A stretch of DNA of 32,000 bases, taken from assembly GCF_000009965.1 (NCBI RefSeq), contig NC_006624.1, forward strand, positions 570,001 through 602,000, in the 5' to 3' direction. Of the stretch, positions 2,156 through 19,957 are shown piece by piece. The number at the start of each line of letters is the position of its first letter. Positions within the stretch are counted from its first letter, which is position 1. The stretch is from Thermococcus kodakarensis KOD1 (GTDB taxonomy: Archaea; Methanobacteriota_B; Thermococci; Thermococcales; Thermococcaceae). Under the pieces are notes generated by a model. That model did not search any database and was not told where the DNA came from. It saw only the letters and a list, made by a program, of their open reading frames with translations. Made by a program: the position numbers and the translations under genes.

Positions 2156-4663
2156 TCAGAAGGTATAGTAGTCGGGGCCTCCTCTTTCCTTCCCTGCCTG
2201 CTTCTTTCTGTTCTCCTCAAAGCTCCTGTAGTACTCCATCATGTACGGCGTGACGCTCGGTTTGACCTTCTTCATGGCCATCTCGAAGTCCTTCTTCGAC
2301 ACCTTCAGCCTCTCAAGGAACTCCTCGGACTCGCTTTCAACTACCTCACGCGGGAGCTCTCTCATTATCCTGCGCATCGCTATTAGGGCCGCCTCCCTGA
2401 CGAGCGCGGCTATGTCCGCACCCGTGTAGCCTTCGGTCTTCTTGGCGAGCTCCCTAAGGTCAACATCACCTGCAAGCGGTACTCTTCTGGTGTGGACTTT
2501 GAATATTTCGAGTCTGGCCTTCTCGTCTGGAGCTGGAACGAGTATCAGCCTGTCGAACCTTCCTGGCCTGAGGAGTGCTGGATCGATAATGTCCGGCCTG
2601 TTGGTGGCACCAATGACGACCACGCCGCTGTTCTCCTGAATACCGTCCATCTCGGTGAGCAGCTGGTTGATCAGCCTGTCAGTGACCCTGTCCCCCTCGG
2701 ATCCCCTGGCCGGTGCTATTGCATCGATCTCGTCTATGAACACCACCGTCGGAGCAGCCTGGCGAGCCTTCCTGAAGATTTCCCTAATCCTCTTCTCGGT
2801 CTCACCGACCCACTTTGAGAGAACCTCTGGCCCCCTTATCGCTATGAAGTTGGCCTGGCTCTCGTTGGCTACTGCCTTGGCGAGGAGAGTCTTACCCGTT
2901 CCTGGCGGGCCGTAGAGGAGTATTCCCTTCGGCGGCTCAATGCCGAGCCTCTCAAAGGCCTTGGGGTACTTGAGCGGCCATTCTACTGCTTCTCTGAGCT
3001 CCTGCTTGACATCTTCAAGGCCCCCGATGTCCTCCCAGCGGACGTTCGGGACTTCGATGAGTACCTCCCTGAGGGCACTTGGCTCAACCATCTTGAGGGC
3101 CTCGTAAAAGTCGTCTCTTCTAACGCGGAGCTCCTGGAGAACCTCTGGTGGGATTCTCTCCTGTTCGGGGCTTATCTTGCCCTCTTTGATGAGCCTCCTG
3201 AGAACGACCATGGCCGCTTCTCTTGCAAGGGCAGCTAAATCAGCACCGACGAAGCCGTGCGTAACTTCAGCCAGCTCGTCGAGCATTTTGTCTATCAGCC
3301 TGTTCCTGACCTCGGAGTATATTTCGGCGTCCTTTTTGAGGGCCTCCTTGACTTCGCTCTCGTTCTTTGCGTTCTCAACTTCGGCAATGATTTTGTCTAC
3401 TCTTTCAGCATCAAAGTTGCCCTTTTCCCTTATCTCGCGGAGCACCCTAAGGACGGCCTCTTTGTCGTAGTCCGGTTCGAGGGGCATTCCTCTGGTGTGG
3501 ATCTGGAGTATCTCCTTCCTGCCCTGCTTGTCGGGAACGCCGACCTCAATCTCTCTGTCGAACCTTCCAGGCCTCCTCAGGGCCGGGTCGAGTGCATCAG
3601 GTCTGTTGGTAGCGGCAATGACTATGACCTTCCCACGGCTCTTGAGACCGTCCATCAGGGTAAGCAGCTGGCTGACAACCCTCTTCTCGACCTCCCCAAC
3701 GACCTCTTCTCTCTTGGGGGCTATCGCGTCTATCTCATCAATGAAGATTATGCTCGGGGCGTTCTCCTCGGCTTCTTTGAATATCTCCCTCAGCCTCTCC
3801 TCGCTCTCGCCGTAGAACTTGCTCATTATCTCTGGGCCGTTGATGGCTATGAAGTGGGCGTTTGCCTCGTTGGCGACGGCCTTCGCCAGGAGAGTCTTAC
3901 CCGTTCCTGGCGGCCCGTAGAGGAGAACTCCCTTCGGCGGTTCAATCCCAAGCCTCTCGAAGAGCTCCGGGTGCTTGAGCGGGAGCTCGACCATCTCACG
4001 GATTTTTTGAATGGCGTCGCTGAGGCCGCCTATGTCTTCGTAGGTGACCTCAGGGATGCTCTCCTCCTTGACTTCGACGGCCTGCGGGAGCACCTCGACC
4101 TCGGTGTTGTAGGTTATCTGGACGATGCCTTTTGGAACTGTGTTTACCACAACGAACTTCAGCTCACCGAAGCCGATCGGCATAGCCTCGAAGAACCCTC
4201 TGAGCAGCTCATCAAAGGGCGAGTAAACCGCCTCGTTCTGTCCACCGGCCACTACGAGGTCGCCCTTGACGACGGGCCTTCCGAGGAGGTTCTGCTTTAC
4301 AATCTCCCCAGGAATCTGGATGAAGACTCCCTTCTGGGCAGGGGCCAGAACGACCTTCTTGGCCTCCTGGACTTCCGCCCTGGAGACCGTGACGTAGTCC
4401 CCTATGCTCACTCCCGCGTTTCTCCTGATGTAGCCGTCCATCCTGATTATGTCAAGTCCCCTGTCGTCTGGGTGGGCGTTTGCAACTATCGCCGCCGTAA
4501 CCCTCTCTCCCTTGAGCGCAACTATGTCACCTGGCTCAACGCCGAGCTTTCTCTGGTACTTTCTGTCAAACCTGACTATTCCCCTTCCAACGTCCCTTTT
4601 CAGGGCCTCCGCGACGCGGAGCTTAATCTCGTCAACCTTTTCATCTTCTTTACCGAATATCAT
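2156..4663 (-). CDS. cdc48: CDC48/VCP/p97-type AAA+ ATPase (two AAA domains plus N-terminal double-psi barrel domain)
   Basis: 835 aa. Two Walker A motifs [15 protein letters not shown] and two Walker B motifs ([18 protein letters not shown]). N-domain signature [19 protein letters not shown]. The start overlaps the upstream gene by 4 nt (ATGA). Confidence 0.97.
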
Positions 4664-8572: not shown

Positions 8573-8618
8573 CGAAAGGCTTATTTTGATCAGTTCCAAC
8601 TTTCAGAGGTGGGGGAAA

Positions 8619-9032
8619 GTGGTCAGTATGGAGGAGCTCCGCAGGGACTTCAGGGAGTTCAAAGACCTCTGCATGGGGATTCTTCTCTACGGCTCCCACG
8701 TCAAGGGAGAGGCAACCGGGCAGAGCGATGTTGATGTGTGCCTTGTGAAACCGAAGCCAGGGACGTACGAGAAGGTTCTGGAAAGGCTCGGCGGAAAGTA
8801 CGACGTCAAGGTTTTCGAGGAGCTGCCCCTCTACATTCAGATCGATGTAATCAAGAACCACCGGGTAATCTATGGAGACGAGCTCGAGCTTTCAGAGTAC
8901 TTTTACAGGTTCAGAAAGCTCTGGAATGACATGGAGCACCGAATACGGGAGAACAGGTTTGAAAGCGTGAGGGAAAAAGTCAGACTGAGGAGGCGAGCCC
9001 GTGAGAAGGCAAAGGTACTTGGAAAGGCTTGA
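8619..9032 (+). CDS. MNT-type (Pol-beta superfamily) nucleotidyltransferase, putative antitoxin-like component
   Basis: The motif LLYGSHVKGEATGQSDVDVCLV is the GS...DxD minimal NTase signature. SD GAGGTG at 8606-8611 favours GTG 8619; ATG 8628 or TTG 8586 are alternatives. Confidence 0.8.
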   Translation: MVSMEELRRDFREFKDLCMGILLYGSHVKGEATGQSDVDVCLVKPKPGTYEKVLERLGGKYDVKVFEELPLYIQIDVIKNHRVIYGDELELSEYFYRFRKLWNDMEHRIRENRFESVREKVRLRRRAREKAKVLGKA

Positions 9033-9042
9033 GAAATTGTAG
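9001..9042 (+). pseudogene. 13-codon stub, possibly the remnant 5' end of the HEPN partner gene of the NTase
   Basis: GAGGAGG (8987-8993), a 7-nt spacer, then GTG 9001. It encodes MRRQRYLERLEKL* and overlaps the NTase 3' end as in MNT-HEPN operons. The TAG at 9040-9042 coincides with the drop in G+C. Confidence 0.3.
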
Positions 9043-9278
9043 GTGCTCTAAAGAAATTTAAATTTGGTTTTCGTAGAGATGTAGAGAAACCTAAGACACC
9101 TTAAAGAGGTTTTAGAGTGAATTCTTCTTTATAATTTCTTTCTTAGGAGATTAAATGGAACATCTAAAGGGGAAACCTTAAGATCACTAATCACATCTTA
9201 GTTCAGATTTTGTTTTCTATCAGATAAAATGAATCATATTTTTAGGTTTAAAACCTGAGGTTAATAACATAAGGTTCT

Positions 9279-9295
9279 CAAAAATATTTTAATTT
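9279..9295 (+). promoter_or_regulatory. candidate BRE/TATA (AAAAATATTTTAATTT) for the precursor-peptide transcript
   Basis: The best A/T box upstream of 9363 would place a TSS near 9315. The background is AT-rich, so specificity is low. Confidence 0.25.
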
Positions 9296-9362
9296 AAGAT
9301 GGATAATTGTAATTGCTGAGGCATGGGCCTGTGAAGCATGATGAACCTGCAAGGTGGTGAAC

Positions 9363-9461
9363 ATGAAGAGTCTAGATTTGAAGGCAATAATTCCGCCTGT
9401 GGCTCCGAGTGCTGGGGGCTCGGGCAACTACTGCTGCTGTAACAAAGTCAACACAAACTGA
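9363..9461 (+). CDS. 32-aa Cys-triplet small peptide, candidate RiPP precursor: MKSLDLKAIIPPVAPSAGGSGNYCCCNKVNTN
   Basis: Hand-translated ATG 9363 to TGA 9459-9461. SD GGTGGTGA at 9353-9360 has one mismatch to GGAGGTGA and a 5-nt spacer from the GGTGG core. Local G+C spike (33/50 at 9391-9440) within an AT-rich spacer. It lies 70 nt upstream of a radical SAM maturase and is too short for the ORF track. Confidence 0.65.
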   Translation: MKSLDLKAIIPPVAPSAGGSGNYCCCNKVNTN

Positions 9462-9472
9462 AGCCTTAGAAC

Positions 9473-9488
9473 TTTATTTTTATTTTTT
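9473..9488 (+). terminator. oligo-T tract (TTTATTTTTATTTTTT) immediately after the peptide ORF; candidate archaeal intrinsic terminator/attenuator
   Basis: T5 at 9477-9481 and T6 at 9483-9488, 12-27 nt after the stop codon. Archaeal RNAP terminates at oligo-T runs. Confidence 0.4.
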
Positions 9489-9531
9489 AATTAATCAACA
9501 CGGCGTACTCATCACACATGGAGGTGTTATA

Positions 9532-10869
9532 ATGTCTATGAAAGTTCACATACTATCAAAACAGATTAACGAAAATGAATATGTTGCATTCGATCCAATG
9601 AGTAAAACTGTCCTAATACTAAATAGGCAAGAAAAAAATATAATAGAAAAGTTCCAAAGAAGTATTCCGCTGTCTATATCTGAAAAATACATCCTTAAAG
9701 ACATACTTGATTTCCTAAATGAGAAACGTGAAAATGCCCCCAAACAGCAATTTCCATTAGATGGATCCCCCAATATGATGGTATTAATGGTATCTCAACT
9801 TTGCAATATGAAATGCAAATATTGCTATGCTCATTCCGGTACATATAACACTCCTGGAGTTATGAAAGAAAGCATAGGAAAACGGGCTCTTGATATTGCA
9901 AACGATTTAGGAGTAACAAATATACAATTCTACGGAGGAGAACCTCTAATCAATTTTGAATTAATATCCAAGCTTGTTAAGTATGCAGAGAAACAGGGGT
10001 ATAACTTTAAATATGGAATAATCACGAATGGAACATTGATAGGTAAAGAGATAGGCTATTTTCTAAAACAACATGATTTTGAGGTCACAATAAGTATTGA
10101 TGGACCAAGGGAGATAAATGACTTAAACAGAGTATACTCCACAGGTAAGGGAACACATGATGATATCATAAAAGCCGTGAACTTATTGAATGATCTAGAA
10201 GTTCCTTTAGCCTTAGAGATCACATACGCCCGTAATTATATCGGCAAATATACCATATCAGAGATTTTGGATTACCTTAGCAATTATTCGAAGACTTTCA
10301 TAGTAGGATATGTTCTGCCCACAGTGGATGGACATCGACAAGTATACGAACCAACCGAACAAGAAGTTGAAAACATGATGACAGAACTTGTAAATTACCT
10401 CTTTACAAAATGGGAAAATGGAATTCAAATACGAGAAATGGGAATCTGCATGGTACTTCGTGAGCTTTTAGACCCAGTCTATCATGTTAAAAAATGCATA
10501 TGCCCTGAATTCCCAACTAGAATCACTGTATTTCACGATGGTAGTGTATACCCCTGCCACCAAGTGTATCTAGACAAACGTTTCTATCTAGGACATATAA
10601 TGGACAGGGAGTTTAAGGATACATTACAGAGACAATTCAAAAACGCAGTGGATAATTTTGCGATGTCTAATCTTCATACAAATAATAACGAACAATGGAT
10701 ATTTAGTGTCTGTAGCTTTTGTAAAGCCCATCTAATGGAAGTTAGTGGTACTTACTATTTAAGATATCCAAATGCTTATCAAAAAGTACTAGAACATATC
10801 ATGTATAACATGGTCACTAGAAACATGAGATCAGTCATACATACACTAGGGGGCACTATAATTGAGTAA
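9532..10869 (+). CDS. radical SAM peptide-modifying enzyme with N-terminal PqqD/RRE-like domain and reduced SPASM/Twitch-like C-terminal domain
   Basis: GGAGGTG at 9520-9526, then ATG 9532 (445 aa). CX3CX2C = CNMKCKYC (Cys91/95/98, nt 9802-9825). GGE motif FYGGEPL. C-terminal CX12GX4C (CPEFPTRITVFHDGSVYPC) plus CSFC. N-terminal ~85 aa (YVAFDPMSKTVLILNRQEKNIIEKF) resembles RiPP recognition elements. The ORF-track start at 9409 runs through the peptide gene in another frame. Confidence 0.85.
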   Translation: MSMKVHILSKQINENEYVAFDPMSKTVLILNRQEKNIIEKFQRSIPLSISEKYILKDILDFLNEKRENAPKQQFPLDGSPNMMVLMVSQLCNMKCKYCYAHSGTYNTPGVMKESIGKRALDIANDLGVTNIQFYGGEPLINFELISKLVKYAEKQGYNFKYGIITNGTLIGKEIGYFLKQHDFEVTISIDGPREINDLNRVYSTGKGTHDDIIKAVNLLNDLEVPLALEITYARNYIGKYTISEILDYLSNYSKTFIVGYVLPTVDGHRQVYEPTEQEVENMMTELVNYLFTKWENGIQIREMGICMVLRELLDPVYHVKKCICPEFPTRITVFHDGSVYPCHQVYLDKRFYLGHIMDREFKDTLQRQFKNAVDNFAMSNLHTNNNEQWIFSVCSFCKAHLMEVSGTYYLRYPNAYQKVLEHIMYNMVTRNMRSVIHTLGGTIIE

Positions 10870-12526
10870 AGCACTCCGCAGAGTTCTCCAGATTGGACTG
10901 GCTCACAAGAAATACGTGTTCCTCCTCATAACTTTGGGGGCAGTATCAACTCTCCTATCTGCAGCCGTGCCTTTTTACATTCAAAGCCTCATTGAAAACC
11001 TCGGCAAGATGAATACCGATGACATCCTGAAGAATATTGGAATTATACTCCTCCTGTACACCGCATCAACGATCGTCTACTTATACTCGGGCTTTGTTAG
11101 CAACTTCGCAGAAACGAAAGCTGCCGCATGGCTTAAAAGAAAACTGTTCATCTCAACTCTGCTCTCAGAGAACATCAACCCGGGTGATGCCCTCTCCCGA
11201 ATTCAATCGGACACGGAAATCGTCGGTAGAATGGGAATGTCTCTAATCCCTGCCATCATTATAGAGGCATTTTCTCTAATCATTGGAGTGACGGTTATCT
11301 TTAGACTAAACCCATATCTAGGTGCCGTTACCCTCCTAACACTTCCGGTCTACGGTCTCTCCCTCAGGGCGTTCATTCATGGACTTAAGCTGGCCTCTTC
11401 AGAAGAAAGAAAGAGATACTCAGAGAGCGTTACCGCATTTAAAGAGGGAATAGACGGTAGGCTTGATATAAAGACCCTTGATGCGTTCGACTATCTTATC
11501 AAAAGGGTCTCAGAAAGGCTTGACCGTTGGGTCAATGCATCAAAAAGAGTTGCTTTTTACAGCACAGCCAGCTATGGCCTTCAGTCATATCTATCAACGA
11601 TCCTACCACTTCTTGTCCTCCTAAGTGGTATAGTTTTTGTTAAGAATGGAATGGCCACCCTTTCGTCGGTGATCGCCACGTTTACATACCTCGGCAGAGT
11701 CTATTACCCAGTTGAGCGATTTGCATTCTTCTGGAGCAGTTATCACAGAGCCGTTCCCATAATTGAAAGAATATGGGAGTTCATTGAAATCGAACCATTC
11801 CTTGAAAGATCAACGTGTACTCCAGAAGATTGGGATATTGAATTGCAGGGTGTATCCCTATCCCGCGAAGGAAGTCAGGTTCTAAAGGAAATCTCCGAGA
11901 GAATTGCCTTTGGCAAAAACCTCGGCATAGTGGGTCCTTCGGGAGTTGGAAAAACAACGCTAGCCTTGATAATCTCGGGAATAATTAGGCCCACCAAGGG
12001 CAAAGTTAAGATCGGAAAGTGTCCACCCGAGTCCCTTCTTGGCAGGGAACTTATCTATGTTCCGTCACAGCCGTATCTCTTTGAGGGAACGGTTAGGGAA
12101 AACATTGCCCTCGGAAAAAATCTCACAGACAGCGAAATTGTGGAGATTCTAAAAACCGTTGAACTTGAGGAACTAAATCCCGATTTACCTATTGAAGAGG
12201 GCGGTAAAAATCTATCGTTAGGCCAGAGACAGAGGATAGCCTTAGCGAGAGCTCTAGCTAGAAATCCCAGGATCATGATACTGGATGAAGCCACTTCGGG
12301 CATGGATTCTGAGAGGGAGGCAAGGATCCTCCAAAGATTGAGAAAAATGGAGATGACCCTTATCATCATATCACACCGGCTATCAACGGTCAGGGACATG
12401 GAAGAGATATGGGTTCTCGATGATGGTAGAATACTATGCAGAGGTAGACATGAAGAGCTGTTCAGGAGTTGCGAGAAGTATCGTGAGTTATTCAAAGAGC
12501 AGGAGAAAGGCAAAGATGGTCTTTAA
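10862..12526 (+). CDS. ABC exporter, fused 6-TM permease plus ATPase (type I exporter, half transporter); no N-terminal C39 peptidase domain
   Basis: 554 aa. Walker A GPSGVGKTT, signature LSLGQRQR, Walker B IMILDEATSGMD, H-loop ISHR. TTG start is the first codon after an in-frame TAA and overlaps the radical SAM stop by 8 nt. Confidence 0.9.
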   Translation: MSKALRRVLQIGLAHKKYVFLLITLGAVSTLLSAAVPFYIQSLIENLGKMNTDDILKNIGIILLLYTASTIVYLYSGFVSNFAETKAAAWLKRKLFISTLLSENINPGDALSRIQSDTEIVGRMGMSLIPAIIIEAFSLIIGVTVIFRLNPYLGAVTLLTLPVYGLSLRAFIHGLKLASSEERKRYSESVTAFKEGIDGRLDIKTLDAFDYLIKRVSERLDRWVNASKRVAFYSTASYGLQSYLSTILPLLVLLSGIVFVKNGMATLSSVIATFTYLGRVYYPVERFAFFWSSYHRAVPIIERIWEFIEIEPFLERSTCTPEDWDIELQGVSLSREGSQVLKEISERIAFGKNLGIVGPSGVGKTTLALIISGIIRPTKGKVKIGKCPPESLLGRELIYVPSQPYLFEGTVRENIALGKNLTDSEIVEILKTVELEELNPDLPIEEGGKNLSLGQRQRIALARALARNPRIMILDEATSGMDSEREARILQRLRKMEMTLIIISHRLSTVRDMEEIWVLDDGRILCRGRHEELFRSCEKYRELFKEQEKGKDGL

Positions 12527-15411: not shown

Positions 15412-16389
15412 GTGAAGCCACGGGTCTATGAGCTCTCTCCTGAGGAAGTGAGGCAGGTTTTGGGAGTAATTGAAAGCTACGGCGTAAATGAGGTTGAGGT
15501 GGAGAATCTCGCCTCTTTTCTGGACGACATGATAGAGTCTCCCAAAGAACGGCTGGAGTACGCGCGCAGGCTTCTTAACGAGGGCAACGTTGATAAGGCC
15601 GTCCTTGTGGTTGGAGATGGAACTGGCACGCTCATCGTTAAAATTGAAAACGTTGCCGAGATAAGAGTTTTCGTCAGGGAATACGAGAAGTTGATGAGGG
15701 CATTGGGATTGCGGGGTGATAGGGTGAAGCTAATAGCCCAGGGGGCCGAGGCGAAGATATACGAGGCGGACTTTGAGGAGGTCTTTGGTGTTCCTCTGCT
15801 CAAAGAGAGGGTCATCGTAAAGCACAGGATTCCAAAGAGGTACAGGATCAAGGAGATAGACGTGAAGCTGAGGAAGGAGAGAACCGTAAGGGAAGCGAGA
15901 ATTCTCCACAGGGCAAAGGAGTTCGGCGTCAACTGTCCCCACGTTTATGAGGTTGACCTGAGGGACATGAAGCTCGTGATGGAGTACATAGAGGGACAGA
16001 GGCTCAAGGAGCTCCTTGAGAGCGTCCCGATGGAAGAGAGGCTTGAGCTGTGCCGCGAGGTCGGGAGACAGATTGGAAAGCTACACAAGGCTGGGATAGT
16101 CCACGGGGATTTAACGACCTCGAACATGATATTCAGGGACGGCAAGGTCTACCTGATAGACTTTGGCTTGGCCGACTTCGACTCGACGCTTGAAGCAAGG
16201 GGCGTTGACCTGCACCTCCTCAGGAGGGCGATGGAGAGCACCCACTACACCTGGTTCGAGAGGGGCTTCGAGGCCGTCCTTGAAGGCTATGCTGAAGTTC
16301 TCGGCGAAGAAGCGAGGAAAGAAGTCGAGGAGAAGATGAGGGAGATAGAGAGCAGGGGCAGGTACAGGGAGAGGAGCTGGCTTAGTTAG
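15412..16389 (+). CDS. bud32: Bud32/PRPK-type KEOPS kinase with an additional ~105-aa N-terminal region
   Basis: The kinase core starts at LIAQGAEAKIY (Gly-rich loop equivalent). Also LVMEYIEG, IVHGDLTTSNMIF and YLIDFGLA. SD GGGTGA at 15401-15406 favours GTG 15412 over 15403. Confidence 0.85.
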   Translation: MKPRVYELSPEEVRQVLGVIESYGVNEVEVENLASFLDDMIESPKERLEYARRLLNEGNVDKAVLVVGDGTGTLIVKIENVAEIRVFVREYEKLMRALGLRGDRVKLIAQGAEAKIYEADFEEVFGVPLLKERVIVKHRIPKRYRIKEIDVKLRKERTVREARILHRAKEFGVNCPHVYEVDLRDMKLVMEYIEGQRLKELLESVPMEERLELCREVGRQIGKLHKAGIVHGDLTTSNMIFRDGKVYLIDFGLADFDSTLEARGVDLHLLRRAMESTHYTWFERGFEAVLEGYAEVLGEEARKEVEEKMREIESRGRYRERSWLS

Positions 16390-17215
16390 TAGTTCTGCGT
16401 TTTCTCTTGTTTTTAAGAATCTCTTCCAATATTGGGAAGCCGTATAAAGTACTCGCAAGGCCTACATAATGGACAAAGATATTTACAAGCCCAGACCTCC
16501 AGACAATAACCGAAGGGAATAGTCCAATAATCCCCCCGACCATTATTATAATTATTGCCAAAACAAAGTTCCAGACAGCTTTTTTCTGATGGGGATCTTG
16601 GACATTTGAGTCCCTAAGAGCTTGGGAAATCAAATAAATGAGAAATAGTCCTCCTCCGATAATCAGGAGAACTGCTGGCCAAATGATGGAATATATAAGG
16701 GCTATCAGGCCACCTAAGAGCAATGTAAATGCATATGAGAACATTGTAGGGGAAACTTTGAGTCTAAACCTTTCTTGAAGCGCAAGGGAAGAAAAATACG
16801 GAAGTGCGCCAAGCAGAGCTGAGTCTATCCCAGAAAACCCCATACCGTATCTTAGGTTGTACCGCCTCATGACCAGTAGATCAAGAATACCAATTATCGG
16901 TGGGATAACAAGAAACAGGAAGACTGTGAAGCGTTTAAAAGCATCTGTACTCCTTCCAACTTCTGAGAGGAAGTACAAAATGGGGAATAGCAAGATAAAC
17001 GTGAGCAGGTTGCCAGCTAGATGCCAAAACTCCATGTGGACAAAGTGGAGGGTATAAAGCCTGATCCAGTCGTGGGGATTTGAAAATGAGAATTCTTGAT
17101 AGTTCATTACCAGTTGCTCCTTAATCGATGCAGGTGCAAGATAAAGTAGTAATAGTACGGAAGCTGTCCCTACACACACCGAGGCAAAGAGAACTCTTTC
17201 TTTTGTGGTGTTCAT
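16382..17215 (-). CDS. rhomboid-family intramembrane serine protease
   Basis: 277 aa, multi-TM. HMEFWHLAGN (Hx4Hx3N), GFSGI (GxSG catalytic Ser) and a late FVHYVG His motif. Low G+C (25/60 at 16561-16620). The 3' end overlaps bud32 by 8 nt (convergent). Confidence 0.8.
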   Translation of the reverse strand: MNTTKERVLFASVCVGTASVLLLLYLAPASIKEQLVMNYQEFSFSNPHDWIRLYTLHFVHMEFWHLAGNLLTFILLFPILYFLSEVGRSTDAFKRFTVFLFLVIPPIIGILDLLVMRRYNLRYGMGFSGIDSALLGALPYFSSLALQERFRLKVSPTMFSYAFTLLLGGLIALIYSIIWPAVLLIIGGGLFLIYLISQALRDSNVQDPHQKKAVWNFVLAIIIIMVGGIIGLFPSVIVWRSGLVNIFVHYVGLASTLYGFPILEEILKNKRKRRTTN

Positions 17216-17276
17216 AATTTACATTTAGACTGCAAAAGGTTTTAAGAGTGTTTGTGGGTTTAATTGTTTGATTACT

Positions 17277-18224
17277 ATGAGATGGGTTCAAGAAAGAATT
17301 AGACAGACAATAAATAGGTGGAAAAAAGAGCCTTCTAATGATATGGGTTTGTTGGTTACTCTTATAACTTCAATTATATTACTGTTCGTTCAAGTGATAA
17401 TTGACGAAAATTTCCAAAAATCTTTATTTGTGTATAACCTCTTGTCAATGTATATGATCCTCACCATGATATTTCTGATTATTGCGTGGTTCTTGATCAG
17501 TGATTCTGCAATACTTGAGACTGCTAGGGATGTAAGTTTTGTGTTGATGATTCTCTTATTAACAATCACGTTGATCTCTGGAATAGTTATAATCCCCGAT
17601 AATGAAAAAACCCCTGGATTTTCCCCAAATGAGCTCTCAACTAGTAGTTCTCTAGGCACAAATAATCTTAACATCAGGATATTGGTATTTTCTTTGATTG
17701 GGATTGAATTGGCAGTATTAACTATACTTTGGTATGCTTCCTTTGAGAGTCTCAGCAGACCTATCAAGCTTCCCAATCTTACACTCAAAACACAACGTAT
17801 AGGGTTTGTATCGGGATTCTTTCTTAGTTTAGTGATATTTGGGTTTGGATTAGTAGACTCAGAATGGGGCAAAATTGTAAACCTTATTTTAACAGTGCTC
17901 TTAATGGTGTTTGTTCTTTTGGGATTAGTTTTTGTCTGGAAGCTCACTAAAATTAAATCCACTTTTTCTGAACTCCTTCTCATTGCTGTCTCTGGTGGAG
18001 TTGTTGGTATATTGAGCATATTGGTTGGCAAGGCTTTAAATAACCTTTATACAAATACAAGTTCAGAACAAAAACTGGCCCATGAATTTTTTGTATTTTC
18101 TCTGTTCTCTATTATATATCTTGCTTTTTTCCGCCATTACCTCTACCTAAACGCTCAAAAGCACAAACAGCAAAAACGTGAACAAAGACTAAAACGGGAG
18201 CTACTAAGACGCTATCACAATTAA
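17277..18224 (+). CDS. hypothetical polytopic membrane protein (~8 TM) with a basic C-terminal tail
   Basis: ORF 17268..18224; the first ATG is at 17277. Very AT-rich (17/60 G+C at 17401-17460). Hydrophobic segments alternate with short loops. Tail is KHKQQKREQRLKRELLRRYHN. No family recognised. Confidence 0.55.
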   Translation: MRWVQERIRQTINRWKKEPSNDMGLLVTLITSIILLFVQVIIDENFQKSLFVYNLLSMYMILTMIFLIIAWFLISDSAILETARDVSFVLMILLLTITLISGIVIIPDNEKTPGFSPNELSTSSSLGTNNLNIRILVFSLIGIELAVLTILWYASFESLSRPIKLPNLTLKTQRIGFVSGFFLSLVIFGFGLVDSEWGKIVNLILTVLLMVFVLLGLVFVWKLTKIKSTFSELLLIAVSGGVVGILSILVGKALNNLYTNTSSEQKLAHEFFVFSLFSIIYLAFFRHYLYLNAQKHKQQKREQRLKRELLRRYHN

Positions 18225-18226
18225 TC

Positions 18227-19957
18227 TCAGCTCTCCCTGAACTTCCTCAGAACCCTCTCGTATATCTCTTTTTCCGCCCCTCTGGCCTTTCTCGCGAGCC
18301 TCTCGACGATCAGCTCGGGCGTGCTCCTTCCGAGCCTTCCAAAGACAGGCTGTCTGTCCACTATGAGGTTCAGGTTTTCGTCAAGGCCCTTGGCCTCGAT
18401 CCCGTCAACCCTCGCGAAGGGCAGTTCTTTCTTGAGGTCTTCGCCCAGGTGGGAGACTATAACCACGTGGAAGCCCTTCTCGTGGGCAACCTTCAACAGC
18501 TCGCCGATTATCTTGACAGCAGCTCCAGGCTCGGTGATTGCTTCAAACTCGTCTATGAGGATAAGTTTGTTTCCTTTCCCACGGAGAGACCTCACAAACG
18601 ACCTGAGGGCAGTCTCGAAGGCACCGGCGCCGTAGACGCTCCTCTTCCGCCTGAAGAAGAACAGCTCGTCGAGGACTCCAACGCGGGCCCTCTCGGCAGG
18701 AACAGGAAAGCCCATGTGGGCGAGAATGGAAACCTGGGTTATCAGCTCGAGCAGGCTCGTCTTTCCACCGCTGTTGGCTCCTGTTAGGATAACGACGTTC
18801 TCTCCCCTCACGTTCTCCGCACCGGGGACGTCGAACCACTCTGGCTTTTCCCCGACGACGTAGCTAACCGGCTGCGGGTTCTCTATGAAGAGGTGCCGCC
18901 CGTTCAGGAAGGCTATCCCGCTTTCGGCTATCTCTGGAAAAGTGAAGCCCTCCGTGAATGCCTTCACCGCCTGAAGAAAGTCGAGCTCCCTGATTTTTGA
19001 AAGCTCCTCTCTGAGCTTTGGAAGGAGCGGTCTGACCTTCTCAGCTATCTCCCTCGCCTTCATGTAAACTTCAACCTTCAGCTCCCGCTCAAGCTCGGTT
19101 CTCAGGCCCTCAACGACCTCTGGCGGGATTCTCACTGGATAAAGCTCCTCGCGCGAGAAAAGCTCCACGTGAAGGCCCAGAACCTTTGAAAGCTCGCTCT
19201 CGGCCTCGTTTATCATGTCGAGGATTTCCCCTTCAATTTCACGGAAGTGGGAGAAAATGGCCTCGTAGTTGCCCTCCCTCAGCTCGTTCAGGAACTTCAC
19301 GAGGTCTCTGCCGGTGAGAGTGAGGCTGAACTTCTCAAGCTTCTCCTCTATTCTCTCGTTCAGCTCCCTCTCCTTCTCGGCTATGAGCTCATCCAGAGAC
19401 CCCAGAAGCTTTTCCTTCTCAACGACCTCCCCGAAGGGTGACAGGTGTTCGAGAATCTCGCCGGCAACGCTGCCCTCGCCGGTCAGCTTCCCTATCTCCT
19501 CAAGGGCTTTGAGCGTCTCCCTGTTCTCCCAGAGCGGGAGAACGTAGAGCTCTGGAGCGACCTGCGATGGCAGTAGCTCGACGTCGATGCCGTAGCCGAT
19601 CGTACTCAGGACGAGCGGGTAGCCTTCAGCCTCTTCCGGGTTCGTCGTCACATCGCAGAGGCCGAGCTTTATGGCCGTTTCCACTTCGGATTCGTCAACG
19701 ATGAGAACCCTGTCGTGCAGGTAGTCTCGGGTGAATCGTATGAACCTGACCCTCTTTATTAACTCCTTAAGCCCCGGTTTAACTCTCCTGAGGGCCTCTC
19801 TCAGGTATTCCTGCCTCTTCAATATCTCCCCGCGGTCGTTAGTTGGAGAAAAGTTCTCAAGGTAGTCGGAGCTCTCTTTGAGGACTAACCTGGACTTGAT
19901 TTGAGAGGTTATATCCCTGTAAACTGCCCTGGCTTCCGGGTTGAGCTTCAGCGCCAT
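18227..19957 (-). CDS. MutS-related ATPase (archaeal MutS5 / MutS2-like, domain V only, no Smr domain)
   Basis: Walker A LTGANSGGKTSLLE and Walker B LILIDEFEAITEP. TATA TTTTATAA (19982-19989, minus strand) is only ~9 nt from the ORF-track ATG (19975) but ~26 nt from ATG 19957, so a leaderless start at 19957 is preferred. Confidence 0.8.
   Translation of the reverse strand: MALKLNPEARAVYRDITSQIKSRLVLKESSDYLENFSPTNDRGEILKRQEYLREALRRVKPGLKELIKRVRFIRFTRDYLHDRVLIVDESEVETAIKLGLCDVTTNPEEAEGYPLVLSTIGYGIDVELLPSQVAPELYVLPLWENRETLKALEEIGKLTGEGSVAGEILEHLSPFGEVVEKEKLLGSLDELIAEKERELNERIEEKLEKFSLTLTGRDLVKFLNELREGNYEAIFSHFREIEGEILDMINEAESELSKVLGLHVELFSREELYPVRIPPEVVEGLRTELERELKVEVYMKAREIAEKVRPLLPKLREELSKIRELDFLQAVKAFTEGFTFPEIAESGIAFLNGRHLFIENPQPVSYVVGEKPEWFDVPGAENVRGENVVILTGANSGGKTSLLELITQVSILAHMGFPVPAERARVGVLDELFFFRRKRSVYGAGAFETALRSFVRSLRGKGNKLILIDEFEAITEPGAAVKIIGELLKVAHEKGFHVVIVSHLGEDLKKELPFARVDGIEAKGLDENLNLIVDRQPVFGRLGRSTPELIVERLARKARGAEKEIYERVLRKFRES

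Follow-up and report, generated by a model that had tools for sequence, protein, structure and literature searches.

The window considered here is a 32 000-nucleotide stretch of the genome of the archaeon Thermococcus kodakarensis KOD1; a KOD1 genome coordinate is obtained by adding 570000 to the window position, as established from published gene coordinates. Within it lies a module of three genes, which encode a 32-residue peptide with a Cys-Cys-Cys sequence (CCC), the radical S-adenosylmethionine (SAM) enzyme TK0675 (BAD84864.1; 445 residues) and the ATP-binding cassette (ABC) exporter TK0676 (554 residues). Neighbouring genes encode HtpX (TK0677) and thermosome alpha (TK0678). An original prediction, made from the DNA, had read the three elements as a precursor, a maturase with a RiPP recognition element (RRE) type domain and an exporter, together a candidate locus for a peptide synthesized by ribosomes and modified post-translationally (RiPP) in the Thermococcales. 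The features that it described were all found at the positions it gave, and our analysis supports this three-part reading. Coordinates are collected in Table 1.

The precursor-peptide gene and its transcript

A homologous small open reading frame (ORF) is placed directly 5' of the enzyme gene, on the same strand, in all seven lineages examined (KOD1; L095–L098; L005–L007; L001/L008/L015; L002/L003; L004/L010; L099), which is the conservation that the original prediction had proposed to look for. The two genes are separated by 55–100 nt in the lineages measured (70 nt in KOD1). The encoded peptides share the consensus LKAxIPPVxPSxGGxGxxCCC, with Lys7, Ala8, Pro11, Pro15, Ser16, Gly18, Gly19, Gly21 and Cys24–Cys26 invariant. 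A conserved N-terminal part, approximately residues 4–21 and likely to be a leader, precedes the CCC at residues 24–26, and a variable tail of four to six residues completes the chain. Asn or Asp directly follows CCC in six of the seven lineages, and half of the lineages carry Asn, not a carboxylate, near this position. The exact sequence MKSLDLKAIIPPVAPSAGGSGNYCCCNKVNTN was not found in a collection of 15 billion proteins, so the peptide is unannotated, and it matches no NCBIfam or Pfam model.

Comparison of KOD1 with L096, a relative that is 90% identical, reveals nine synonymous changes and a single, conservative, non-synonymous change (D5E) in the 32 codons. By our own calculation, in which roughly one quarter of the sites are synonymous, the binomial probability of at least nine such changes in ten is about 3e-5. 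Between distant lineages pS is saturated (0.66–1.1), pN is 0.10–0.44 and the pN/pS ratio 0.13–0.62. These values argue strongly for purifying selection on the peptide ORF. The remaining same-strand frames are interrupted by stops in the relatives. Judged from these comparisons, the small ORF is a real gene and not a chance ORF.

An antisense ORF (9278–9427) also stays open in all lineages, which is explained by the coinciding third codon positions of the two frames and by Pro, Gly and Ala codons that mirror one another on the two strands. The synonymous count therefore cannot separate the frames. The sense frame was chosen on account of its start codon, Shine–Dalgarno (SD) motif, stop position, CCC conservation, promoter and transcription start site (TSS); in the antisense ORF the start, the stop and the sequence outside the overlap are not conserved, and we regard it as a by-product.

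A degenerate DNA pattern of the peptide was searched against 596 Gb of species-representative genomes. The only archaeal loci retrieved were three (L007, L008 and L010), each a copy of a lineage in which other contigs (L005/L006, L001/L015 and L004, respectively) show the enzyme gene directly downstream. The other three matches come from GC-rich bacteria; none is a small ORF, and stops occur in two of them. The scan missed KOD1 itself though the pattern fits, and the KOD1 copy may be masked or absent in that collection. No match was obtained in viral contigs.

The transcript of this gene has been mapped. The TATA box is centred about 26 nt 5' of the published TSS at 9315 (Jaeger et al., 2014), and all six lineages aligned keep the promoter block cAAAA...TTTTAAAT/GTTAAAT 5' of this ORF. 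The motif GCTGAGGCRTRRGCCTGTGAAGC starts exactly at the equivalent of base 9315 in KOD1, L096 and L002, and GGTG-type SD motifs are located 3–7 nt before the start codon in all lineages. Since the TSS was assigned to TK0675, the peptide ORF lies on the mapped TK0675 transcript, inside a former 5' untranslated region (UTR) of 217 nt, and we reinterpret this published UTR as a precursor-peptide gene. Read counts for TK0675 (254–528) are similar to those of its neighbours in the published differential RNA sequencing (dRNA-seq) map (PMC4247193). The precursor claim of the original prediction is thus upheld by an ORF conserved with the enzyme, by purifying selection and by a TSS 48 nt upstream.

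A run of at least five T residues occurs 10–35 nt past the peptide stop in every lineage. In KOD1 this oligo-T tract is likely to be a partial archaeal terminator that would give an excess of short precursor transcripts. The AT-rich box 5' of the antisense TSS at 9442 is the reverse complement of the tract, and the terminator region may act as a TATA box for the opposite strand; the product could be a regulatory antisense RNA or terminator-derived promoter noise.

Several other features of the region were considered. The first 24 nt of the transcript (9315–9338; GCTGAGGCATGGGCCTGTGAAGCA) are conserved with L096 and L002. A 4-bp hairpin within these 24 nt (AGGC-N4-GCCT) has loops that vary (ATGG, GTGA, ATAA) and is not claimed as a feature; folding of the UTR gave no significant RNA structure (z = 0.54). 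An Rfam scan of 8900–9700 returned chance-level matches to no particular family, and therefore no riboswitch is assigned there. A scan for bacterial sigma-70 promoters and hairpin terminators, signals that do not apply to archaea, returned counts at background level. An orphan TSS at 9084 (KOD1 579084, + strand), listed by Jaeger et al. (2014) as a species-specific candidate small RNA, sits in the AT-rich spacer 9033–9314 between TK0674 and the peptide promoter. An eight-codon ORF at 9155 with an AGGAG SD motif was discarded, as it is not conserved in L096/L097.

Table 1. Features of the module in window coordinates, and related precursor peptides on other contigs
Feature	Position	Strand	Details and source
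Archaeal promoter of the peptide gene	9279..9297	+	A-rich B recognition element (CAAAAA), then TATA box TATTTTAAT
Primary TSS of TK0675	9315 (KOD1 579315)	+	dRNA-seq, Jaeger et al. (2014), Table S2, PMC4247193
5' UTR, 48 nt	9315..9362	+	SD-like GGTGGTG at 9353–9359
Precursor-peptide gene (unannotated, 32 residues)	9363..9461	+	ATG at 9363, TGA ending at 9461; encodes MKSLDLKAIIPPVAPSAGGSGNYCCCNKVNTN
Antisense start site inside the peptide ORF	9442 (KOD1 579442)	-	Jaeger et al. (2014), Table S2
Oligo-T tract just past the peptide stop	9474..9488	+	TTATTTTTATTTTTT; from the sequence
TK0675, predicted radical SAM peptide maturase, 445 residues	9532..10869	+	SD GGAGGTG at 9520–9526, ATG at 9532
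TK0675 domains			RRE-like (residues ~1–70); radical SAM core; C-terminal degenerate SPASM (Twitch-like)
Internal start site, called primary for TK0676	10803 (KOD1 580803)	+	Jaeger et al. (2014), Table S2
TK0676, half-size ABC exporter, 554 residues	10862..12526	+	Six transmembrane helices plus nucleotide-binding domain; PF00664, PF00005
Upstream peptide, L095–L098			MKSLELKAIIPPVAPSAGGSGNYCCCNKVNTN
Upstream peptide, L005/L006/L007			MEVLELKAIIPPVTPSSGGSGNHCCCNVSTT
Upstream peptide, L001/L008/L015			MEVVELKAKLPPVAPSAGGVGLACCCDKVGK
Upstream peptide, L002/L003			(M)EVVNLKATIPPVTPSAGGVGLGCCCDKDDVD
Upstream peptide, L004/L010			(M)KVVNAKAKLPELTPSSGGGGFICCCDSVK; Bathyarchaeota metagenome-assembled genome
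Upstream peptide, L099			...KRLPVFEPASGGGGNTCCCKANTN; contig of enzyme P0152
Sister-clade precursor locus, L100	4556-4735
Sister-clade precursor locus, L102	3781-4008
Sister-clade precursor locus, L103	1006-1224

Enzyme, exporter and origin of the module

TK0675 carries a radical SAM core (PF04055, 69.8 bits; Fer4_12, PF13353, 43 bits) in which the CX3CX2C motif, Cys91/Cys95/Cys98 (nt 9802–9825), is invariant in 85 aligned homologues. The top NCBIfam families are PapB (NF047865; 161.2 bits, E 4e-47, cut-off 340), CcpM (TIGR04068; 141.6 bits over residues 14–404, cut-off 500), a nif11-peptide maturase and the SCIFF maturase (TIGR03974; 124 bits, cut-off 425), with QhpD also matched; the anaerobic sulfatase-maturating enzyme (anSME) model scores lower (TIGR03942; 102.9 bits, cut-off 349.45). 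Among solved structures, CteB gives the best sequence match (E 5e-28) and anSME the next. These four best-scoring curated families and the best Protein Data Bank (PDB) match are all peptide maturases, and three of the four, together with the PDB match, are thioether or Cys-rich-peptide maturases. TK0675 therefore appears to lie in the peptide-maturase neighbourhood but in no defined family. The search that the original prediction had suggested for the enzyme accordingly placed peptide maturases nearest, all below their cut-offs. Its concern that the enzyme might fall cleanly into a non-peptide family such as anSME was not borne out, the nearest characterized relatives being peptide thioether synthases; among the window proteins that were scanned, which did not include every ORF, no sulfatase turned up. 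The cyclopropylglycine synthase TigE and ChlB also match TK0675 strongly.

An AlphaFold2 model of TK0675 (predicted local distance difference test score 95.3) comprises an N-terminal domain of three strands (residues 6–13, 16–21 and 26–31) and helices (32–42 and 49–68), a radical SAM barrel and a C-terminal Fe–S domain. In a Foldseek search the top match is CteB, with template-modelling (TM) scores of 0.70–0.74 over approximately 467 columns that include the N-terminal domain (the CteB chains have 418–421 residues); anSME, ChlB, TigE, SuiB and SkfB rank next. The CcpM and CefB profiles align from residues 11–14 of TK0675 onward. An RRE is a winged helix-turn-helix in which three strands are combined with three helices. 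The PqqD/RRE-like N-terminus of the original prediction is retained as a probable assignment on its predicted fold and on these near-full-length profile alignments, but not as a Pfam PqqD match.

The C-terminal domain is unusual. A full SPASM domain has seven cysteines (CX9-15GX4C, CX2CX5CX3C and a final C) and two auxiliary clusters. All seven are kept by more than 90% of the 85 homologues; TK0675 and its close relatives differ, and the Pfam SPASM match is marginal (21.8 bits, cut-off 21.5). This clade keeps only Cys324, Cys342 and Cys397 (nt 10501-10503, 10555-10557 and 10720-10722), that is, the CX12GX4C motif formed by C324-x12-G337-x4-C342, and Cys397. The first, second and last cysteines of CX2CX5CX3C...C are replaced in TK0675 by Leu381, Gln388 and Pro413, and throughout the clade by Leu, by Gln/Lys/Ala/Tyr and by Pro/Ala/Glu/Val, respectively; the third (Cys394) is variable. 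From the anSME structure, we take the lost positions to ligate auxiliary cluster II and the retained ones cluster I. The alignments thus indicate that the TK0675 clade has lost the ligands of the second auxiliary Fe–S cluster, and TK0675 is therefore Twitch-like and not a full SPASM protein. Of the 'SPASM/Twitch-like' C-terminus originally proposed, only the latter half survives.

The loss is shared across the clade. A profile search of 1.84 billion representative proteins gave about 35 strong near-full-length matches (clusters at 50% identity). All 33 of the clade members that were aligned share the Cys loss together with a W[FY]...[DE]xC[IV] motif, and their three remaining cysteines are invariant; the canonical neighbours of the clade keep CxxCWAK..C..C...C. 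The Cys loss makes TK0675 a distinct variant. Cluster I of CteB and the Twitch cluster of SkfB are three-Cys sites with an open iron, for which binding of the donor Cys has been proposed (PMC8326336). By analogy, the loss in TK0675 would be compatible with thioether chemistry. The clade offers a natural test of the purpose of the second auxiliary cluster of SPASM enzymes, as it appears to work without one.

In TK0676 the Walker A motif is at residue 358 and the signature LSLGQ at residue 451; neither NCBIfam nor Pfam detects a C39 peptidase domain. The start codon is a TTG at 10862, and the gene shares 8 nt with the end of TK0675. Wherever a locus extends far enough for it to be seen, an exporter (39–89% identical to TK0676 across lineages) accompanies the enzyme, with gene overlaps of 8–35 nt in the four lineages measured (KOD1, L001, L002 and L099). 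Its start also overlaps the enzyme gene in L004, L005/L006 and L096/L097, and in the Bathyarchaeota locus L004 the exporter is split into its transmembrane and nucleotide-binding domains. The exporter claim of the original prediction holds in that the gene is co-inherited and overlaps the enzyme gene wherever its start is visible, except in L015, where the two genes abut.

Two candidates for leader processing were rejected. The GG of the peptide is conserved as in a double-glycine leader, yet the exporter has no C39 domain and the typical hydrophobic spacing is absent. HtpX as a dedicated leader peptidase was discarded as it is not present in the L001, L002, L004 and L099 neighbourhoods; it adjoins the module only in KOD1 and L005/L007, in differing relative orientation. 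No protease, immunity or further tailoring gene is conserved around the enzyme among the loci examined.

The G+C content is 0.34–0.39 over 9000–11000, which holds the peptide and enzyme genes, approximately 0.45 in the exporter gene and 0.52 in the rest of the window. At third codon positions (GC3) it is 0.31 in the enzyme gene and 0.47 in the exporter gene, compared with 0.72–0.76 in the neighbouring genes. Close relatives of the enzyme are very few among 5.8 billion protein clusters, with identities of 89, 64, 56, 53 and 41%, after which there is a drop to 29%; a more distant enzyme from the profile search, P0152 on contig L099, has both the upstream CCC peptide and an overlapping downstream ABC gene. 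The nearest relatives of the module are found in archaeal metagenome-assembled genomes (MAGs; Thermococcaceae and Bathyarchaeota) and on unassigned contigs. The three-gene module was probably acquired horizontally, given its atypical GC3 and patchy distribution. Fragmentation or truncation of the TK0675 homologue in Thermococcus sp. M36 and KS-1, with the atypical composition, likewise points to an accessory, horizontally acquired module. The flanks of the island contain short chance repeats only, with no direct repeats or integration scars, although no search for tRNA genes was made.

The exporter is conserved more than the enzyme (77% against 53% identity between KOD1 and the L002 type; 64% against 56% for the L001 type). 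The GC3 gap and this unequal conservation hint at different evolutionary rates or a mosaic origin.

Proposed pathway and alternative explanations

The module presents a short, co-oriented and co-conserved precursor gene adjoining a maturase, a radical SAM core with a CX3CX2C motif and, as is typical of a peptide export module, a dedicated ABC exporter beside the maturase. We consider that this is very probably a RiPP module of some kind, whether the chemistry is thioether formation or another. It is probable that the locus is specifically a compact, horizontally acquired RiPP module with thioether formation as its leading chemistry. Taken on its own, thioether chemistry, which we infer, is a question about evenly balanced.

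The transcription step is established: RNA synthesis under the conserved promoter starts at the mapped site 9315, covers the 32-codon gene and proceeds into TK0675. The later steps are our model. Termination of part of these transcripts at the oligo-T tract would leave the precursor message in excess over that of the enzyme. The leader would be formed by the conserved first two-thirds of the peptide (LKAxIPPVxPSxGGxG) and would dock on the RRE-like domain of TK0675. The enzyme would cleave SAM at the [4Fe–4S] cluster held by Cys91/Cys95/Cys98, and the resulting 5'-deoxyadenosyl radical would abstract a hydrogen near CCC. A substrate Cys thiolate, probably held on the free iron of the remaining auxiliary cluster (Cys324, Cys342 and Cys397), would then capture the carbon radical to form an intramolecular thioether. 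Between one and three such links are possible, and the best candidate acceptor would be an Asn or Asp at one of the three positions that follow CCC. The half-transporter TK0676 would export the product. Since no leader peptidase is encoded nearby, processing may be absent or performed by a host protease. An archaeocin, a signal and a metal-binding peptide are all conceivable as the product; for work on stable peptide scaffolds, a peptide whose cross-links suit it to function at 85 °C would be of interest.

A number of observations weigh against this pathway. Every curated maturase family scores TK0675 below its cut-off, so that the chemistry is not transferable by family membership, and close SPASM relatives carry out other reactions: anSME oxidizes Cys, and TigE produces cyclopropylglycine. 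TK0675 lacks ligands for the second auxiliary cluster, which CteB and other full-SPASM maturases possess. The isolated N-terminal domain matches no Pfam PqqD/RRE model at E values up to 10. Lys follows CCC in one lineage, and the acceptor is therefore not fixed at the +1 position; the precursors of a sister clade have a single conserved Cys. Both observations qualify the up to three thioether links that the original prediction had thought possible. Neither a leader peptidase nor an immunity gene is conserved among the loci examined, and the broken enzyme genes of some Thermococcus strains imply that the gene is dispensable.

Some of these points would suit a RiPP module in which the reaction at CCC is not thioether cross-linking. 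The cysteines might be converted to formylglycine or a thioaldehyde, as by anSME, or undergo a thio-oxazole-type heterocyclization; C–C cross-linking or epimerization of neighbouring residues is a further candidate, as is a tri-thiolate metal-binding or redox site. That anSME is the second-best match by sequence and fold, that TigE and ChlB are strong matches, that all thioether-maturase models remain below their cut-offs, that the loss of the second auxiliary cluster marks the clade as mechanistically distinct and that one Cys suffices in the sister clade are all consistent with such a reaction. The recognition motif of anSME is CxPxR or CxAxR, however, and is absent from the peptide. The four top families and the best PDB match are peptide maturases, mostly of the thioether or Cys-rich-peptide type, and the auxiliary site with its three cysteines is similar to the open-coordination clusters found in the thioether synthases CteB and SkfB. 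On balance, we regard a different chemistry as unlikely.

Two explanations that dispense with a RiPP product altogether are much less probable still. The small ORF might be a regulatory upstream ORF, in which ribosome pausing at Pro-Pro or CCC tunes read-through of the oligo-T tract into TK0675 and TK0676 while the enzyme acts on another substrate. The ORF does lie within the 217-nt '5' UTR' with the oligo-T tract next to it, and its peptide contains PP and CCC runs. Outside the PP and CCC codons, however, some 20 residues are conserved even though synonymous sites have reached saturation, which a pure attenuator would not require. The enzyme, with its peptide-binding type of N-terminal domain, falls within peptide-maturase clades, the peptide pattern is found solely in enzyme-carrying lineages and the exporter is co-inherited; we consider this explanation highly improbable. 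Equally improbable, in our view, is that the module is what remains of a transferred cluster in decay, no longer functional and yielding no product in KOD1. The GC3 values of 0.31 and 0.47 within the module, its patchy distribution, the fragmented or truncated enzymes of strains M36 and KS-1 and the lost SPASM cysteines could each be taken as signs of decay. Set against these are three ORFs that are intact in KOD1 and in six or more further lineages, a peptide under strong purifying selection and transcription at levels like those of neighbouring genes. The Cys loss itself is ancient and clade-wide (33 of 33 aligned, from about 35 strong matches), with the other three cysteines invariant.

Relation to known systems and to a sister clade

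The closest structural counterpart is the SCIFF ranthipeptide maturase CteB (PDB entries 5WGG and 5WHY), which has its RRE, radical SAM and C-terminal Fe–S domains in the order predicted for TK0675 and, likewise, an auxiliary cluster with only three Cys ligands whose open iron is proposed to bind the donor Cys. The two enzymes are approximately 20% identical, and CteB has two auxiliary clusters whereas TK0675 has ligands for one. The SCIFF precursor has six spaced cysteines in 45 residues and usually lacks an exporter; precursors of the Thermococcus type have three adjacent cysteines in 30–35 residues and are accompanied by an ABC exporter.

PapB, a ranthipeptide maturase of the freyrasin type, joins Cys to the side chains of Asp or Glu, and also to a C-terminal residue (PMC9413430, PMC12373016). 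The peptides of our module carry Asp or Asn within three residues past CCC. They differ in having CCC[D/N/K] without CX3D repeats; in addition, the NF047865 match spans only residues 83–395 of TK0675 and the SPASM domain is degenerate. SkfB (PDB entry 6EFN), the sactisynthase of the sporulation killing factor, compares with TK0675 in its RRE, to which the RRE-like domain of TK0675 would correspond, in its radical SAM core and in its Twitch domain, where three cysteines hold the only auxiliary cluster. It introduces one Cys thioether into a short precursor, and an ABC system carries out the export. The sequence similarity of SkfB to TK0675 is very weak (E 9e-4) and the TM score is about 0.5; the Twitch-like state of TK0675 is an independent degeneration of a CteB/PapB-like SPASM domain. 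SkfA, moreover, is cyclized and has another motif. The anaerobic sulfatase-maturating enzyme anSMEcpe (PDB entries 4K36-4K39) acts on a Cys in a peptide segment and is the second-best match by sequence and fold, but it has no N-terminal RRE-like domain and two fully ligated auxiliary clusters, and it lacks the co-conserved, dedicated small precursor and exporter of the TK0675 locus.

A preprint of July 2026 (bioRxiv 10.64898/2026.07.27.741052) reports, on bioinformatic evidence, a subtilosin-like sboA/albA/albC cluster for T. celer and T. nautili. Like the present module, this Thermococcus cluster has a minimum of parts, namely a precursor, a radical SAM enzyme and an ABC exporter; it lacks a leader peptidase, and horizontal transfer is proposed for it. 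The precursor is, however, a subtilosin homologue with spaced cysteines and Phe/Tyr acceptors, the enzyme is an AlbA homologue and the cluster traces to Bacillota, whereas the nearest relatives of the TK0675 module are in archaeal MAGs and on unassigned contigs. T. kodakarensis is not mentioned in that work. Archaeal sactipeptide and ranthipeptide clusters have been predicted in bulk, with only lanthipeptide clusters functionally characterized (PMC12144867), and ranthipeptide expression has been noted in archaeal MAGs (PMC13635244). The original statement that radical SAM RiPPs of hyperthermophilic archaea are essentially uncharacterized therefore holds for experiments but not for predictions (PMC12144867; bioRxiv 10.64898/2026.07.27.741052). 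TK0675 and TK0676 are unmentioned in the text of the literature searched, in which we also found no description of the CCC peptide family or of the clade without a second auxiliary cluster.

With this finding a model genome gains a gene that its annotation lacks, and the tractability of the host as a model archaeon gives the locus solid interest. KOD1 is naturally competent and markerless gene deletion is routine, so the peptide, enzyme and exporter genes can each be deleted and the product sought directly.

Enzymes of a sister branch also lack the ligands of the second auxiliary cluster. Their upstream peptides are longer (59–75 residues), share [FL]G[TS]AKI[GA]GL[SV]CNK and have no adjoining exporter, and the loci look like a separate uncharacterized RiPP family. 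A GG-x(n)-C-[N/D]-K context recurring in the clade, which rests on three loci only, is suggestive. It is conceivable, though doubtful, that TK0675 and its approximately 35 relatives in archaea and bacteria constitute an unrecognized clade with a single three-Cys cluster that performs a new Cys modification within this context. If so, the Thermococcus product could have a strained ring of very small size, or else a tri-Cys core that is multiply linked or binds metal, and would be the first experimentally accessible radical SAM RiPP of a hyperthermophilic archaeon.

Among the sister-branch loci, L100 belongs to a Candidatus Thiodiazotropha MAG; another radical SAM gene and a C92 peptidase lie downstream there. 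Further out, homologues with a canonical SPASM domain are preceded by Gly/Cys-rich precursors or by CxxxD-rich ones, the latter at the distant locus L014. Gly/Cys-rich examples occur in L029 and L033 (~3680-3774 and 3578-3672) and as three to four tandem copies in L048/L049; they include MIREVEVEAKLQRPLGGCCGLGCGGCGGGCNW and MEFKMNEVKVNDIDILEETEAPAFGIICGGGCWGIGCVG, and the leader of MIREVEVEAKLQRPLGGCCGLGCGGCGGGCNW recalls the Thermococcus peptides.

Two other parts of the window deserve mention. TK0674 (8586-9032, + strand) encodes an MntA-like, antitoxin-type nucleotidyltransferase (39 bits, cut-off 60) with no HepT toxin partner adjoining; the same gene is also found directly 5' of the peptide locus in L096 and L097. 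Another AT-rich patch (16400–18250; G+C content 0.37–0.42) may be a further acquired islet. It holds TK0680 (16382-17215, - strand), a weakly rhomboid-like membrane protein, together with overlapping ORFs on both strands that have no Pfam match.

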